From IMG/VR virus record IMGVR_UViG_2703718772_000017: a DNA stretch of 5,490 nt; one strand, written 5' to 3'. This document shows positions 1 to 4,850 of this stretch, one piece after another. Made by a program: the position numbers and the translations under genes. Under the pieces are notes generated by a model. It had not been told where the DNA came from. It ran no database searches and saw only the letters and a program-made list of their open reading frames with translations. The stretch is from a virus. Lineage: Duplodnaviria; Heunggongvirae; Uroviricota; Caudoviricetes. Within the stretch, counting starts at the first letter, position 1. Every line of letters starts with the position of its first letter.

Positions 1-233
1 TGACGGCGACGCCGCCCTGACAACATCATAATGTTTAAATGTCATTATTCCTCCCGGCCGGGATAGTGTATTAAATCAGATATGGAGTGGGCTGGCTGTA
101 GTCCGGAAGCCTGAATGACACTCGGGGACTACAGCCCAAGAAATGAAAAAAGGCCACGCAGTTGCGCAGCCTGATAAACCCTGGTTAAAATCCACACGAT
201 AACAACACAACAATATCAGTATCTCATGCTATT

Positions 234-258
234 GCCCGAACCCATTCGGGCATTTTTT
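234..258 (+). terminator. Rho-independent terminator for a rightward transcript entering from the left
   Basis: Stem GCCCGAA (234-240), loop CCCA, stem TTCGGGC (245-251), followed by ATTTTTT (252-258). Confidence 0.6.
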
Positions 259-264
259 ACCCAT

Positions 265-289
265 AAAAAAAGCCCCTCCGGAGAGGGGC
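265..289 (-). terminator. Rho-independent terminator ending the leftward replication-module operon
   Basis: On the minus strand: stem GCCCCTC (283-289), loop of 4 nt, stem GAGGGGC (272-278), then a T7 run (plus-strand A7 at 265-271). It lies back-to-back with the plus-strand terminator. Confidence 0.65.
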
Positions 290-492
290 ATGTTTGCATG
301 CACATTCTTTTTCTTGCATGGTGCCGGGTGCCTCCCGGTGAATTCAGTATCAGCACCTGAATCCGCGATTATCACATATACCTGGTTGCTGATTGCCCCT
401 CCGCACAGGGGGATTCACCATGCAGTAGTATTTTTAATAAACAGCAAATAAAAAAATCAAGCATTATGCAGGCTGTTTCTTTTTATCACCGG

Positions 493-2070: not shown

Positions 2071-2572
2071 AATTCCATCCAGCTTTTTGTTGGTATTGCT
2101 GTCGATACGCAAGTTTGAAAGCAATTGCTTTTTCTATAAGTTCGTCAGTTTCACGATCCACTACGGCAGGATCAGCAAAAAGCAGTCCGGACTCCACCAC
2201 ATCGCCATATTCTTTGTTTAACCCGGCGATCATGTACGTGATGCTTTTTCCGTCACTAATTTCACGATACAACCTGAAATCATTAATCCGGATAGCCTCC
2301 ATAATTGCAGGCACTAGCGCCGTGAACTTTTCACGCTTATCCCTAGTGTCGATAGCCTTCCAGCGTTCGAATATCTTCACTCGATTAACGCCAAGCGCTC
2401 GCTGATCAACCGCGCCACCTTCATCTGTGACACGCTGAACATCGATGTTCGGGCGCTCTTTCAAAGCCCAGAATGATTCAGTGATTAATATCGTCGCCTG
2501 CTCCTGTGTCATTCCTGGTCGACATATCCAGGCATCCAGAGCCTCACGAGCCTGTTCAGGAGTGATTTTCAT
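2051..2572 (-). CDS. Hypothetical protein in the cII position (173 aa), possibly YdaT-like
   Basis: ATG at 2572-2570. The start overlaps the dicC-like stop by 17 nt and the stop overlaps the replication gene start by 20 nt, indicating one operon. The segment REKFTALVPAIMEAI resembles my recollection of YdaT; this is unverified. Confidence 0.6.
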   Translation of the reverse strand: MKITPEQAREALDAWICRPGMTQEQATILITESFWALKERPNIDVQRVTDEGGAVDQRALGVNRVKIFERWKAIDTRDKREKFTALVPAIMEAIRINDFRLYREISDGKSITYMIAGLNKEYGDVVESGLLFADPAVVDRETDELIEKAIAFKLAYRQQYQQKAGWNYEPSFC

Positions 2573-2783
2573 TGTTCAACCGCCCCGCCCGCTTCGTCTT
2601 ACGATATTCGTCATAAACCTTGGGATCATACAGAAGCTCGCCGCCAGATGCCTCCTGTAGACGCATCGCGCGACCTTCAGGAACCAGCTCTTGCCATTGA
2701 GAAACAGCAGATGGGTCAACGCCAGCAGCTTTCGCTACTTTGGCTTTCGTACCGTAAAAATTAATTACGTCTGATTTAAACAT
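2556..2783 (-). CDS. dicC: DicC-like Cro-type regulator (75 aa)
   Basis: ATG at 2783-2781 with GGAGGT 3 nt upstream is preferred over the ORF-track TTG at 2810. It is divergent from the dicA-like gene. The sequence ...LVPEGRAMRLQEASGGELLYDPKVYDEYRK... is consistent with DicC as recalled, and the length matches about 76 codons. Confidence 0.75.
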   Translation of the reverse strand: MFKSDVINFYGTKAKVAKAAGVDPSAVSQWQELVPEGRAMRLQEASGGELLYDPKVYDEYRKTKRAGRLNNENHS

Positions 2784-2860
2784 CGCACCTCCAATATTGA
2801 GTTTTCTCAAAGCTAATCACTCAAGGAATCTCAAGTCAAGGGTTATTAAGATATCTAAAT
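2784..2860. promoter_or_regulatory. Divergent dicC/dicA promoter-operator region
   Basis: Palindrome TTGAG-TTTT-CTCAA at 2797-2810. CTCAAG direct repeats at 2820-2825 and 2830-2835. Minus-strand -35-like TTGACT (plus 2835-2840). dicA ATG at 2861 has no convincing Shine-Dalgarno sequence. Confidence 0.5.
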
Positions 2861-3268
2861 ATGAACGAGAAAACTTTAGGTCAACGCATTAGAGAAAGAC
2901 GTAAGCAGGTAGGCTTAAGTCAAAACGGTTTAAGCAAAGCTGCTGGCGTATCTGGCTCATCAATTTCATTATGGGAAAGTGACCATACAGCCCCGCGTGG
3001 GCAAAATTTGCATCGCCTCGCCGAGGTATTGCAATGTTCACCAACCTGGATACTGTTTGGCGACGAGGACAAAACACCAGCTCCCCCTGTTTCACTCGAT
3101 AGTGCCTTAGACTTATCGGAAGATGAGTTAGAGATGCTGCGTTTGTATCGCGCACTTCCTAAATCAGAGCAACAAGCACAACTCAGCGAACTCCGCGCCC
3201 GCGTTGAGAATTTTAATCGCCTGTTCACCGAGCTATTAGAGGCTCGCAAACGCAACAAGCATCAATAA
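2861..3268 (+). CDS. dicA: DicA-type HTH (XRE family) repressor, 135 aa
   Basis: N-terminal HTH (LGQRIRERRKQVGLSQNGLSKAAGVSGSSISLWESD). The sequence VLQCSPTWILFGDEDK and the exact length of 135 aa match DicA as recalled. Divergent from the cro-like dicC. Confidence 0.85.
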   Translation: MNEKTLGQRIRERRKQVGLSQNGLSKAAGVSGSSISLWESDHTAPRGQNLHRLAEVLQCSPTWILFGDEDKTPAPPVSLDSALDLSEDELEMLRLYRALPKSEQQAQLSELRARVENFNRLFTELLEARKRNKHQ

Positions 3269-3329
3269 TCATCCCTTCACAAAATTTTAAAGCCTTACAT
3301 TTCAATGTATTGGCTTTATCTTGCGCCAA

Positions 3330-3385
3330 TACTTGAGTTTTCTCATCAAAAAATCTTGACGAAAAATAATGAGAAAACTAAATTA
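3330..3385 (+). promoter_or_regulatory. Putative dicB-operon promoter flanked by operator copies
   Basis: TTGAGTTTTCTCA at 3333-3345 is identical to 2797-2809. An inverted copy of the 10-mer AGTTTTCTCA lies at 3370-3379. Between them is -35-like TTGACG (3355-3360) and, 18 bp downstream, -10-like TAAATT (3379-3384). Confidence 0.5.
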
Positions 3386-3460
3386 CCTCCATCAACACAC
3401 CGCACGGTGTTCTCAGCAAACAGTTCCGCTACCCCGGCGTTAAGGGGAAATGAGGTCAGC

Positions 3461-3613
3461 ATGGATACTATCGATCTTGGCAACAGCGAATCTCTGGTAT
3501 GTGGCGTGTTCCCCAACCAGGACGGTACGTTCACCGCGATGACATATACCAAAAGCAAAACGTTTAAAACCGAATCTGGCGCGCGTTGCTGGTTAGCCAG
3601 AAACACTGACTGA
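3461..3613 (+). CDS. ydfA: YdfA-like small protein (50 aa)
   Basis: Internal ATG at 3461 of the 3305..3613 ORF, with GAGG 5 nt upstream. MDTIDLGNSESLVCGVFPNQDGTFTAMTYTKSKTF... matches Qin YdfA as recalled. It is the first gene after dicA, as in Qin. Confidence 0.75.
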   Translation: MDTIDLGNSESLVCGVFPNQDGTFTAMTYTKSKTFKTESGARCWLARNTD

Positions 3614-4434: not shown

Positions 4435-4492
4435 TTTCTGGTGACGTTTGGCGGTATCAGTTTTACTCCGTGACTGCTCTGCCGCCGTTTTT
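4435..4492 (+). ncRNA. dicF: DicF small RNA (ftsZ-targeting sRNA) with intrinsic terminator
   Basis: TTTCTGGTGACGTTTGGCGGTATCAGTTTTACTCCGTGACTGCTCTGCCGCC followed by a T-run matches DicF as recalled. Terminator stem GGCGG (4451-4455) with CCGCC (4482-4486), then TTTTT (4488-4492). It lies immediately upstream of dicB. Ends are approximate. Confidence 0.75.
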
Positions 4493-4661
4493 AAAGTGAA
4501 TTTTGTGATGCGGTGAATGCGGCTAAGCGCACGCGGAACAGTTAAAACCAAAAACAGTGTTATGGGTGGATTCTCTGTATCCGGCGTTAATTGTTAACTG
4601 GTTAACGTCACCTGGAGGCACCAGGCACTGCATCACAAAATTCATTGTTGAGGACGCGATA

Positions 4662-4850
4662 ATGAAAACGTTATTACCAAACGTTAATACGTCTGAAGGT
4701 TGTTTTGAAATTGGTGTCACTATCAGTAACCCTGTATTTACTGAAGATGCCATTAACAAGAGAAAACAAGAACGGGAGCTATTAAATAAAATATGCATTG
4801 TTTCAATGCTGGCTCGTTTACGTCTGATGCCAAAAGGATGTGCACAATGA
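4662..4850 (+). CDS. dicB: Cell division inhibitor DicB (62 aa)
   Basis: ATG at 4662 with GAGGA 7 nt upstream. MKTLLPNVNTSEGCFEIGVTISNPVFTEDAINKRKQERELLNKICIVSMLARLRLMPKGCAQ matches DicB as recalled. It follows dicF. Confidence 0.85.
   Translation: MKTLLPNVNTSEGCFEIGVTISNPVFTEDAINKRKQERELLNKICIVSMLARLRLMPKGCAQ

Follow-up and report, generated by a model that had tools for sequence, protein, structure and literature searches.

The dicA repressor gene in this stretch of viral DNA is flanked on both sides by copies of a 13-bp sequence, TTGAGTTTTCTCA. This raises the question of whether the copies are operators, through which one repressor controls both the divergent immunity promoters and the promoter of the dicB operon. 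The first-pass annotation had proposed such an operator set. We analyzed the repeats in the window, the whole stretch of 5,490 nucleotides. A sequence search located the 13-mer exactly at 2797-2809 and 3333-3345, both on the + strand, and this pair is the sole exact direct 13-mer repeat in the window. The first copy is part of a palindrome, as had been noticed: the A at 2810 gives the 14-bp TTGAG-TTTT-CTCAA. The inverted copy of a 10-mer core is also present, TGAGAAAACT at 3370-3379 being the exact reverse complement of AGTTTTCTCA. When the whole 13-mer is flipped, it matches 3370-3382 on the - strand with one mismatch. A full-text literature search for the 13-mer gave no matches.

An AT-rich 13-mer might recur by accident, and without function, in two AT-rich spacers. 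Across the window, some exact direct 13-mer pair is present in 23% of dinucleotide shuffles, and the 14-bp pattern has 6 matches against a shuffle mean of 3.1, which alone is not significant. A local test covered only the intergenic regions on either side of dicA, 77 and 192 nt in length (269 nt together). The longest word that they share is 13 nt, and a shared word of at least 13 nt appeared in 2 of 2000 local shuffles. Of the six matches to the pattern, five are located in these 269 nt, where TTGAGNNNNCTCAA with up to two mismatches has a shuffle mean of 0.18; five matches were reached in 0 of 5000 shuffles. In addition, the sites are invariant beside varying bases, are retained in Buttiauxella, and are positionally homologous to annotated operators of phage P22. 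The repeated 13-mer is real and non-random. Accidental recurrence is effectively refuted by the local shuffles and the conservation, and we give it next to no weight.

In the window, each of the genes around the repeats is intact: dicA, dicC, ydfA, dicF, dicB and ydfD. The operon transcribed from the dicB promoter (dicBp) contains ydfA, dicF, dicB and ydfD in this order, and Pfam DUF1482 is also matched in it. The annotated features are as follows.

2556-2783, - strand: dicC-like cro gene, 75 aa (RefSeq CDS in an identical O111 sequence)
2861-3268, + strand: dicA-like repressor gene, 135 aa (RefSeq CDS)
3461-3613, + strand: ydfA (DUF1391), first gene of the dicBp operon (RefSeq CDS; Pfam DUF1391)
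4436-4487: dicF (Rfam DicF, 72.5 bits)
4662-4850: dicB (Pfam DicB)

Both regulators resemble those of P22. DicC matches Pfam P22_Cro (E=3e-16) and is 47% identical to P22 Cro (BLASTP E=3e-19). Residues 1-72 of DicA are 47% identical to P22 C2 (BLASTP E=1e-20), and the solved structures that match it best are 1adr and 2r1j, both of the P22 C2 N-terminal domain. The recognition helices differ by N32G, V33S and Q37L from C2 to DicA. The similarity ends at residue 72. Unlike P22 C2, the window repressor, 135 aa long, has a DicA-type C-terminal domain. Pfam matches are to HTH_3 and HTH families only, and the S24 peptidase domain, the LexA-like C-terminal autocleavage domain that marks classical CI/C2 repressors, is absent. 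DicA should therefore not be RecA-inducible. This absence places the protein in the DicA subtype and has no bearing on the operators. In K-12, a repressor of this subtype is derepressed by the antirepressor Rem (PMC10448788).

Sequence comparison indicates that the functional unit is an 18-bp pseudo-palindrome of the P22 type, not the 13-mer. Its 14-bp core, TTGAG-N4-CTCAA, corresponds to positions 3-16 of the P22-type site. There are three such sites in the dicC/dicA spacer (OR) and two clear ones upstream of ydfA (OL). The earlier reading lacked two of the spacer sites, at 2821-2834 and 2846-2859. The cores are listed below.

2797-2810 (18-bp site 2795-2812): OR1, core TTGAGTTTTCTCAA, a perfect palindrome that holds the first 13-mer
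2821-2834 (18-bp site 2819-2836): OR2, core TCAAGGAATCTCAA, 8/10 pattern match, aligns with P22 OR2 ACTAAAGGAATCTTTAGT
2846-2859 (18-bp site 2844-2861): OR3, core TTAAGATATCTAAA, 8/10 pattern match, aligns with P22 OR3
3333-3346 (18-bp site 3331-3348): OL2, core TTGAGTTTTCTCAT, holds the second 13-mer, aligns with P22 OL2 ATTTAAGTTTTCTTCAAA
3369-3382 (18-bp site 3367-3384): OL1, core ATGAGAAAACTAAA, holds the flipped copy, aligns with P22 OL1 ATTAAGAAGTCTTAAATT

OR1, OR2 and OR3 are spaced by 24 and 25 bp, and OR3 abuts the dicA start codon. The interval between OL1 and OL2 is 36 bp, or about 3.4 helical turns (35 bp in P22 and K-12), and phasing for cooperative binding is not obvious. Four of the five operator centres contain A/T only. 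The ‘inverted copy’ is simply another operator, its non-contacted A-tract centre flipped.

The 13-mer could instead be an asymmetric direct-repeat unit, as for the P2 C repressor, and not a palindromic site for a dimer. The two exact copies are indeed in direct orientation and have the same non-palindromic TTTT centre. However, the outer bases are dyad-symmetric and the third copy is flipped. The centres of OR2 and OR3 differ (GAAT and ATAT), yet their dyad arms are the same. The helix-turn-helix of DicA is also a close homologue of that in P22 C2, a repressor whose dimers bind symmetric 18-bp sites. The P22 repressor contacts positions 2-7 and 12-17, leaves the central 4 bp uncontacted, and prefers an A/T centre (PMC4267663). 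A direct-repeat unit is hardly credible in light of this evidence, and we treat the sites as dyads.

The dyads are interwoven with promoter elements. A promoter scan of 2700-3500 found one sigma-70-like site, on the + strand and facing ydfA. The remaining elements in the following list were located by reading the sequence and by comparison with P22.

3356-3384, + strand: dicBp (PL-like), TTGACG at 3356-3361, a 17-nt spacer and TAAATT at 3379-3384
2834-2839, - strand: -35 of the dicC (PR-like) promoter, TTGACT (AGTCAA on the + strand), identical to the annotated P22 PR -35
2810-2815, - strand: predicted -10 of the dicC (PR-like) promoter, TAGCTT, at the position of the annotated P22 PR -10 GATAAT
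2824-2829, + strand: predicted -35 of the dicA (PRM-like) promoter, AGGAAT, within OR2, the P22 PRM -35 hexamer in the same place
2847-2852, + strand: predicted -10 of the dicA (PRM-like) promoter, TAAGAT, identical to the P22 PRM -10

The downstream copies had been described as bracketing the -35 TTGACG and overlapping the -10 TAAATT. The bracketing stands. The overlap of the 10-mer core amounts to just one base (3379), and that of the full 14-bp core at 3369-3382 to four. The dicBp transcript is predicted to start at A3391, the first base of ATCAAC, because the corresponding ATCAGC in the P22 PL region marks the start of a feature annotated as similar to lambda early left RNA. OL2 spans -58 to -45 and OL1 spans -22 to -9 of dicBp. 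At the other locus, OR1 overlaps the -10 and the predicted start of the dicC promoter, which is placed near 2803 on the - strand. The majority allele of this -10 is TAGCAT, and the window allele has A at 2811. GTCAA at the dicC -35 is invariant in a four-sequence alignment of the window type, Buttiauxella, K-12 and P22. The dicA mRNA is predicted to be nearly leaderless, starting near 2858. No Shine-Dalgarno sequence is visible upstream of the dicA start at 2861, and the annotated P22 RM transcript has just 4 nt ahead of the c2 ATG.

The annotated OR1-3 and OL1-2 of P22 align element by element with the five sites. P22 immC likewise has divergent repressor and cro genes, three spacer operators at 23-25 bp intervals, and 18-bp dyad sites whose A/T-rich central 4 bp are not contacted. 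Its PR -35 (TTGACT), PRM hexamers (AGGAAT and TAAGAT) and PL -10 (TAAATT) are identical to those in the window, and its PL -35, TTGACC, differs from TTGACG by one base. In both, the offset from OL2 to the PL -35 is 23 nt, and OL1 is located over the spacer and -10. The two loci differ in the half-site, TTAAG in P22 and TTGAG in the window, where position 5 changes from A to G. They also differ in the leftward operon, which is ydfA-dicF-dicB in the window and gene 24 and following genes in P22, and in OL3, which is present in P22.

The locus thus has the features of a P22-type OR/OL system. Three dyad sites separate divergent repressor and cro genes that are homologous to those of P22, and a second cluster is located at a PL-like promoter. 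By sequence and P22 homology, the sites overlap the core elements of PR, PRM and PL, and OR and OL change together with specificity. It is very probable that the window contains an immC-like immunity module, which belongs to a lambdoid prophage found in O111-type strains of E. coli, with five P22-type operators bound, by homology, by the DicA-like repressor and the DicC-like Cro. The annotation had drawn the analogy to lambda OR and OL. The logic is indeed the same, and homology to P22 immC is the closer tie. In lambda, too, a three-part OR separates divergent genes, a second operator cluster is located at the leftward early promoter, and the switch is bistable. The repressor mRNA, with no leader or almost none, comes from a weak promoter that the repressor itself activates. 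However, the lambda operators are 17 bp long with another consensus and no detectable sequence homology to those in the window. Lambda CI is RecA-cleavable, and its DNA-binding domain belongs to a different subfamily from that of the window repressor.

Additional operator candidates were considered and rejected. A weaker 2866-2878 copy on the - strand, in dicA codons 2-6, has an exact 9-mer in common with the operators. It is off the 24-25 bp register, is lost in Buttiauxella, and is probably a coding coincidence. By eye, in a comparison of the window, K-12, Buttiauxella and P22 sequences, no convincing OL3 was found 21-25 bp upstream of OL2 in the window. At the expected place the window has no more than a weak left half, TTGGC, and Buttiauxella and K-12 have nothing. 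A conserved block upstream of OL2 is better explained by a hairpin at 3288-3318 than by OL3. For the dicBp leader, an RNAalifold analysis of five types found no pairs with two-sided compensation. An extension of the operator by CCAATA, located upstream of both 13-mers, was discarded; it is offset by 1 nt and is among the most variable bases in relatives. The CCAATA at OR adjoins the dicC ribosome-binding site.

Conservation was analyzed in 59 distinct sequences of the same immunity type, whose DicA has 95% identity or more. Among these relatives, which are related by descent, 5 of 70 operator core positions vary (6 minor-allele instances). The 8-bp operator flanks are variable at 34 of 62 positions, with 181 instances (Fisher p=2e-9 against the cores, the samples being non-independent), and of all other intergenic positions 55 of 199 vary (p=2e-4 against the cores, with the same shared descent). 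OR1, OR2 and OR3 are invariant in the 59 relatives, and both flanks of OR1 vary. OL2 has four minor-allele instances at 3 of 14 positions between highly variable flanks, and OL1 has two. Compared with the bases next to them, the operators are under purifying selection.

The sites are also kept in more distant loci. In Buttiauxella, where DicA is 74-76% identical, TTGAGTTTTCTCAA is kept at OR1 and OL2 and TTGAGAAAACTAA at OL1, and much of the remaining spacer sequence has diverged. One Buttiauxella locus (L005) retains OR1 and has a perfect TTGAGTTTTCTCAA at OL2. OR3 is invariant in the Buttiauxella and C. braakii loci too. The motif thus recurs in relatives of the same immunity type and in Buttiauxella, but the half-sites of K-12 Qin are different. 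The scan of one genome per species gave 8 loci only, and IMG/VR supplied most of the diversity. Most of the module is carried by about 776 of 5426 complete genomes.

These data bear on whether the operators are relics of an ancestral phage, in a copy whose switch has decayed and now regulates nothing. Many elements that carry dicA and dicB are cryptic, and a few cryptic copies have operator substitutions (L015, L085, L086, L088 and L090). The A at 2811 weakens the predicted dicC -10 in the window, from TAGCAT to TAGCTT. However, the six genes of the module are intact, and the constraint footprint extends across the 59 distinct copies. The module also occurs in HannyBb, an isolated and complete phage, whereas K-12 Qin is a cryptic prophage. 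The HannyBb repressor is 100% identical to the window DicA, and the operator cores are identical to those in the window. Furthermore, derepression of dicB and dicF is toxic (PMC10448788), so that selection for repression continues. Decay of the switch is very unlikely.

K-12 Qin has the same gene order: dicC, dicA, ydfA, dicF, dicB, ydfD. As cited in later work (PMC3441716, PMC10448788), this architecture was published by Bejar in 1986 and 1988, and three operators are described in the K-12 literature; the switch was also treated by Yun et al. 2012 (PMC3441716) and Ragunathan et al. 2023 (PMC10448788). K-12 DicA binds the operator Oc, TTGTTAGTCATAACTAACAA, and binding is abolished by one base change (PMC3441716). 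DicA represses dicC and dicB (PMC3441716; PMC10448788). A DicC ChIP-seq peak is located on the dicA/dicC promoter, with a palindromic motif TT(A/C/T)G...C(G/A/T)AA, and DicC sites are also found at promoters transcribing dicB and dicF (PMC11430063). Oc occupies the position of OR1 in the window and in P22, and in K-12, as in the window, the dicBp -35 has a site on either side of it, the two being 35-36 bp apart.

The specificities differ. The K-12 operator is TTAGT-N4-ACTAA and the window operator is TTGAG-N4-CTCAA, and the K-12 immunity specificity, Oc with matching recognition helices, is not found in the window. DicA is 56% identical to K-12 DicA overall, with differences concentrated N-terminally, and DicC is 71% identical to K-12 DicC, with an identical C-terminus. 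The C-terminal parts of both are conserved, whereas the HTH regions of both have diverged. Since both operator sequence and HTH have diverged from K-12 Qin, the two should be heteroimmune. The arrangement itself is already known from the Qin system described in 1986-88; the window is a heteroimmune allele of it and involves no new mechanism.

To compare specificities more widely, OR and OL regions of five to seven immunity types were analyzed in a matrix of longest shared words. Picking operators by palindrome score in seven types chose wrong registers and was replaced by this matrix. In each type the longest word common to OR and OL is its own operator: TTGAGTTTTCTCA in the window, a 16-mer in Buttiauxella, TTTGTTGAGTTT in C. 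braakii, TAAGTTTTATCAACAA in L100 and TGTTAGTCAT in K-12. OR and OL share 9-16 nt within a specificity group and 6-10 nt between groups. K-12 Qin, P22 and two other types have different half-sites, each common to its own OR and OL. The recognition helices vary in parallel, with SGSSISLWESD in the window, SHVSVSQWERG in K-12 and SNVAISQWERS in P22.

This co-variation helps to distinguish operators from promoter or host-factor elements, such as an UP element, -10/-35 context, or an IHF or Fis site, whose similarity would result from duplicated promoter architecture. OL2, with its A/T-rich centre, is located at -58 to -45, where UP elements usually occur, and the predicted dicA -10 falls within OR3. 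When K-12 DicA was assayed in vivo, Oc was the only site bound, and isolated Om and Oa were unbound (PMC3441716). However, the conserved outer bases form the dyad TTGAG/CTCAA, which neither promoters nor UP elements need. The dyads change with the repressor and Cro recognition helices across types, whereas the promoter hexamers TTGACT, TTGACN and TAAGAT are constant. OR1 also occupies the position of Oc, at which a single-base change abolishes DicA binding. Such elements are thus a highly improbable explanation of the conserved blocks as a whole. For individual sites, the conservation of OR3 could reflect the dicA promoter -10 instead of protein binding, and OR2 and OR3 may be Cro-only or promoter-constrained. 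The reading as a repressor operator set is supported by the lambdoid OR/OL positions, the constraint relative to flanks, the co-variation at both loci, and the alignment with P22 C2 operators.

From sequence comparison, we infer which protein binds which site, the order and cooperativity of binding, activation from OR2, and the transcription starts. Dimers of the DicA-like repressor would bind the five sites through the P22-C2-like helix-turn-helix, and the DicC-like Cro would bind them too. On OR1, over the -10 and start of the dicC promoter, the repressor would block dicC transcription. OR2 would overlie the weak -35 of the PRM-like, nearly leaderless dicA promoter. From the corresponding position, the P22 and lambda repressors activate their own synthesis. 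OR3, over the -10 and start of the dicA promoter, would mediate autorepression or a Cro-type shut-off of dicA. Occupancy of OR2 and OR3 by DicA may need cooperativity, because K-12 DicA bound Oc only (PMC3441716). At dicBp, OL1 would occupy the spacer and -10, with OL2 just upstream of the -35. Repressor at OL1, probably aided by OL2, would deny RNA polymerase access to dicBp and so silence the ydfA-dicF-dicB-ydfD operon.

The practical value of these results is modest. At single-base resolution, they give the likely sites from which the repressor silences dicF/dicB, a toxic operon of division inhibitors. The prophage type that carries it occurs in hundreds of sequenced E. coli genomes, O111 EHEC among them. 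The location of DicA at K-12 dicBp was still listed as unknown by a 2020 study (PMC7567609). Homology predicts two K-12 sites, at 1880-1893 and 1915-1928 of L002, corresponding to 1648379-1648392 and 1648414-1648427 of NC_000913.

Heteroimmune operator/repressor pairs on the P22 C2 scaffold are usable for the study of recognition specificity. We tentatively propose, with slightly less than even confidence, that the DicA allele (G32, S33 and L37, compared to N32, V33 and Q37 in P22) has a distinct half-site specificity, for G and not A at position 5. It would join P22 (TTAAG), Qin (TTAGT), C. braakii and L100 in a natural specificity-switch series on one HTH scaffold. In several types OR1 and OL2 are identical, including the TTTT centre that is not contacted. 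Such identity would point to selection on indirect readout, by which the affinities of the two key sites are matched.

Prophages of E. coli O111 strains match the central 1.2 kb of the window at 100% identity, and most of this segment occurs in about 776 of the 5426 complete genomes of the species. The isolated Escherichia phage HannyBb carries an identical repressor and the same operator cores.

Genes and dyad sites in the window
2556-2783, minus strand: dicC-like cro (Pfam P22_Cro)
2797-2810: dyad site, OR1
2821-2834: dyad site, OR2
2846-2859: dyad site, OR3
2861-3268: dicA-like repressor, 135 aa (HTH_3 only)
3333-3346: dyad site, OL2
3369-3382: dyad site, OL1
3461-3613: ydfA (DUF1391)
4436-4487: DicF RNA (Rfam)
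4662-4850: dicB (Pfam DicB)
after dicB: ydfD (Pfam DUF1482)

The 13-mer that the first-pass annotation reported on both sides of dicA, TTGAGTTTTCTCA, occurs exactly at 2797-2809 and 3333-3345. The first copy lies in the palindrome TTGAG-TTTT-CTCAA, completed by A2810. The 10-mer core is present as its reverse complement, TGAGAAAACT, at 3370-3379, and 3370-3382 on the minus strand matches the full 13-mer with one mismatch. Searching with the dyad pattern TTGAGNNNNCTCAA (two mismatches or fewer) located five sites in the 269 nt of intergenic DNA flanking dicA, with TTTT, GAAT, ATAT, TTTT and AAAA, in order, as the central four base pairs. The sole sigma-70-like site in a promoter scan of 2700-3500 is TTGACG (3356-3361) and TAAATT (3379-3384) on the plus strand, with a 17-nt spacer. 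These are the -35 and -10 facing ydfA described earlier; the overlap noted between the 10-mer core and the -10 amounts to one base only.

The TTGAGTTTTCTCA pair is the only exact direct 13-mer pair in the window. Such a pair arose in 23% of whole-window dinucleotide shuffles and is unremarkable on that scale. The relevant test was taken to be local, covering the intergenic regions of 77 and 192 nt on either side of dicA. These share a 13-nt word, a length reached in 2 of 2000 shuffles. The dyad count of five compares with a shuffle mean of 0.18, and five sites were reached in none of 5000 shuffles of the 269 nt. A fourth partial copy of the repeat, TAAAGTTTTCTCG, with three mismatches and an exact 9-mer AGTTTTCTC, is found at 2866-2878 on the minus strand, in dicA codons 2-6. 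It was rejected as an operator, being out of register with OR1-3 and not conserved in Buttiauxella, and is probably a coding coincidence.

Selective constraint was analyzed in 59 distinct sequences, obtained from 80 loci with a DicA identity of 95% or more.

Variation among the 59 sequences
Five 14-bp operator cores: 5 of 70 positions variable, 6 minor-allele instances
8-bp flanks: 34 of 62 positions variable, 181 minor-allele instances
All other intergenic positions: 55 of 199 variable

The contrast between the cores and adjacent flanks is sharp. Fisher's test gave p=2e-9 for cores versus flanks and p=2e-4 for cores versus other intergenic positions, values that are descriptive because the sequences are related by descent. 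OR1, OR2 and OR3 do not vary, and few positions vary more than the bases flanking OR1. Two Buttiauxella genomes (DicA 74-76% identical) keep TTGAGTTTTCTCAA at OR1 and OL2 and TTGAGAAAACTAA at OL1, with much spacer sequence diverged around them. The motif, which had been suggested for a search of Qin-like prophages, is present in close relatives (OR1 in 59 of 59) and in Buttiauxella; K-12 Qin has a different half-site. Single substitutions in OL2 or OL1 (TTGAGCTTTCTCAT, TTGAGTTTTATCAT, ATGATAAAACTAAA, ATGAGAAAACCAAA) are found in a few prophage copies (loci L015, L085, L086, L088, L090; equivalent to window 3333-3382). Such changes may be naturally occurring operator-down variants, or they may reflect decay of cryptic copies.

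The sites are homologous to those of P22 immC, whose record annotates OR1-3, OL1-3, PR, PRM, PL and the RM transcript start. With the repressor gene on the plus strand in each, the OR region of P22 reads cro - ATTAAAGAACACTTAAAT - tatct - ACTAAAGGAATCTTTAGT - caagttt - ATTTAAGATGACTTAACT - ATG(c2). That of the window reads dicC - TATTGAGTTTTCTCAAAG - ctaatc - ACTCAAGGAATCTCAAGT - caagggt - TATTAAGATATCTAAATA, the final base of TATTAAGATATCTAAATA being the A of the dicA ATG. The PR -35 TTGACT (AGTCAA on this strand), PRM -35 AGGAAT and PRM -10 TAAGAT are the same in sequence and position. The OL region is ATTTAAGTTTTCTTCAAA - aatacac - TTGACC - attta - ATTAAGAAGTCTTAAATT in P22 and ACTTGAGTTTTCTCATCA - aaaaatc - TTGACG - aaaaat - AATGAGAAAACTAAATT in the window. 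The 23-nt offset from OL2 to the -35, the PL -10 TAAATT and the CATCA after it at the expected start are also shared. By this alignment, the 13-mer spans positions 3-15 in a P22-type operator of 18 bp. The P22 repressor makes its contacts at positions 2-7 and 12-17, leaving untouched the central four base pairs, where A/T-rich sequence is preferred (PMC4267663). The 'inverted copy' is simply an operator with its non-contacted centre flipped. The half-site consensus is nTTGAG in the window, TTTAAG in P22 and TGTTAGT in K-12. Over residues 1-72 the window repressor shares 47% identity with P22 C2, and the recognition helices differ at positions 32, 33 and 37. Among solved structures, its best relatives are 1adr and 2r1j.

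The annotated start of the P22 RM transcript lies 4 nt upstream of the c2 ATG, and in the window dicA lacks a preceding Shine-Dalgarno sequence. The dicA mRNA is therefore probably nearly leaderless too. Homology to c2 places the true dicA start at 2861. A2811 is T in most relatives, which creates an in-frame upstream ATG; because of this T the HannyBb repressor is annotated as 152 aa (2950-3408 in its locus, L091). With A2811, the predicted dicC -10 also becomes TAGCTT instead of TAGCAT.

DicA and DicC of K-12 Qin are 56% and 71% identical to those of the window. Most of the differences fall in the N-terminal helix-turn-helix portions, with almost identical C-terminal portions, a mosaic expected of a heteroimmune allele. 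A 1988 paper reportedly described regulation of dicB by the Qin lambdoid-type immunity locus. According to earlier papers, as cited in PMC3441716 and PMC10448788, the dicA/dicC spacer of K-12 holds three operators (Oc, Om and Oa), and dicBp has a PL-like set. K-12 DicA binds Oc (TTGTTAGTCATAACTAACAA) in vivo; Oc is at the OR1 position, overlapping the dicC -10, and one A-to-C change in it abolishes binding (PMC3441716). DicA represses dicBp ~22-fold, and DicC contributes to the bistable switch (PMC10448788). For DicC, the ChIP-seq peak falls on the promoter of dicA/dicC and has the palindromic motif TT(A/C/T)G...C(G/A/T)AA; the promoters that drive dicB and dicF also have DicC sites (PMC11430063). 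A 2020 study still gave the precise position of the DicA site at dicBp as unknown (PMC7567609). A full-text search for the window 13-mer matched none of the papers covered.

Across all types compared (K-12 Qin, a Citrobacter K-12-type locus, the C. braakii type, a further type, that of locus L100, and P22), the architecture is the same and the half-sites are different. The operator in each type is the longest word common to its own OR and OL regions. Shared OR/OL words are 9-16 nt within a specificity group versus 6-10 nt between groups. It is very improbable that the conserved blocks are promoter or host-factor elements, since the dyads change between types while the promoter hexamers are constant. 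Constraint, co-variation and P22 homology instead argue for the original proposal of repressor operators serving the divergent immunity promoters and dicBp. The set of sites belongs, as a heteroimmune member, to the well-known P22/Qin family of immunity operators.

These comparisons show that the sites exist, are constrained, co-vary and have P22 homologues; which sites are filled and in what order, whether binding is cooperative or activating, and where transcripts begin are inferred. DicA dimers at OR1 would block dicCp. The likely site of self-activation is OR2, over the weak -35 of the dicA promoter. OR3, over the -10 and start of that promoter, would mediate autorepression or Cro shut-off. 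At dicBp, OL1 (-22 to -9) would block RNA polymerase, and OL2 (-58 to -45) would probably stabilise OL1 occupancy. DicA may or may not occupy OR2 and OR3, since isolated Om and Oa are unbound by K-12 DicA (PMC3441716). DicA has no S24 domain (Pfam); induction is therefore expected by antirepressor or repressor instability, as in K-12, not by RecA cleavage.

No third OL site (OL3) was found in the window. The OL1-OL2 interval is 36 bp, without obvious helical phasing, and 35 bp in P22 and K-12. Just past the dicA stop, a hairpin at 3288-3318 (AAAGCCU-UACAU-UUCA-AUGUA-UUGGCUUU; dG -11.3 kcal/mol, z -3.3) lies inside a block, 3269-3320, with little variation among the 59 relatives. The hairpin is a candidate terminator for dicA and might account for the absence of a visible OL3 there. 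The predicted dicBp transcript (3391-3447) starts ATCAAC, and the P22 PL region has ATCAGC at that position. Its leader contains small predicted hairpins, ACACCG-CA-CGGTGT (3397-3410) and CCCC-GGCGTTAA-GGGG (3432-3447), which may act as a 5' stabiliser or nut-like element. At the places of these stems the sequences of other immunity types differ, and RNAalifold found no two-sided compensatory pairs among the types compared.

The two arms of an exact 14-nt inverted repeat, ACGCCAGCAGCTTT / AAAGCTGCTGGCGT (2719-2732 and 2936-2949), specify K-A-A-G-V with the same codons and lie in the helix-turn-helix of the two divergent genes. It reflects either coincidence or exchange between the dicC and dicA HTH-coding segments. 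An exact 15-nt inverted repeat, TGAATTTTGTGATGC / GCATCACAAAATTCA (4497-4511 and 4630-4644), lies between DicF RNA and the start of dicB. Pairing of its arms could give the polycistronic transcript a long-range stem, which is a candidate structure for processing or translation control. At the left window end, two prophage sRNAs, AgvB (197-258, plus strand, 96.5 bits) and STnc100 (259-449, minus strand, 143.3 bits), score above the Rfam gathering score.
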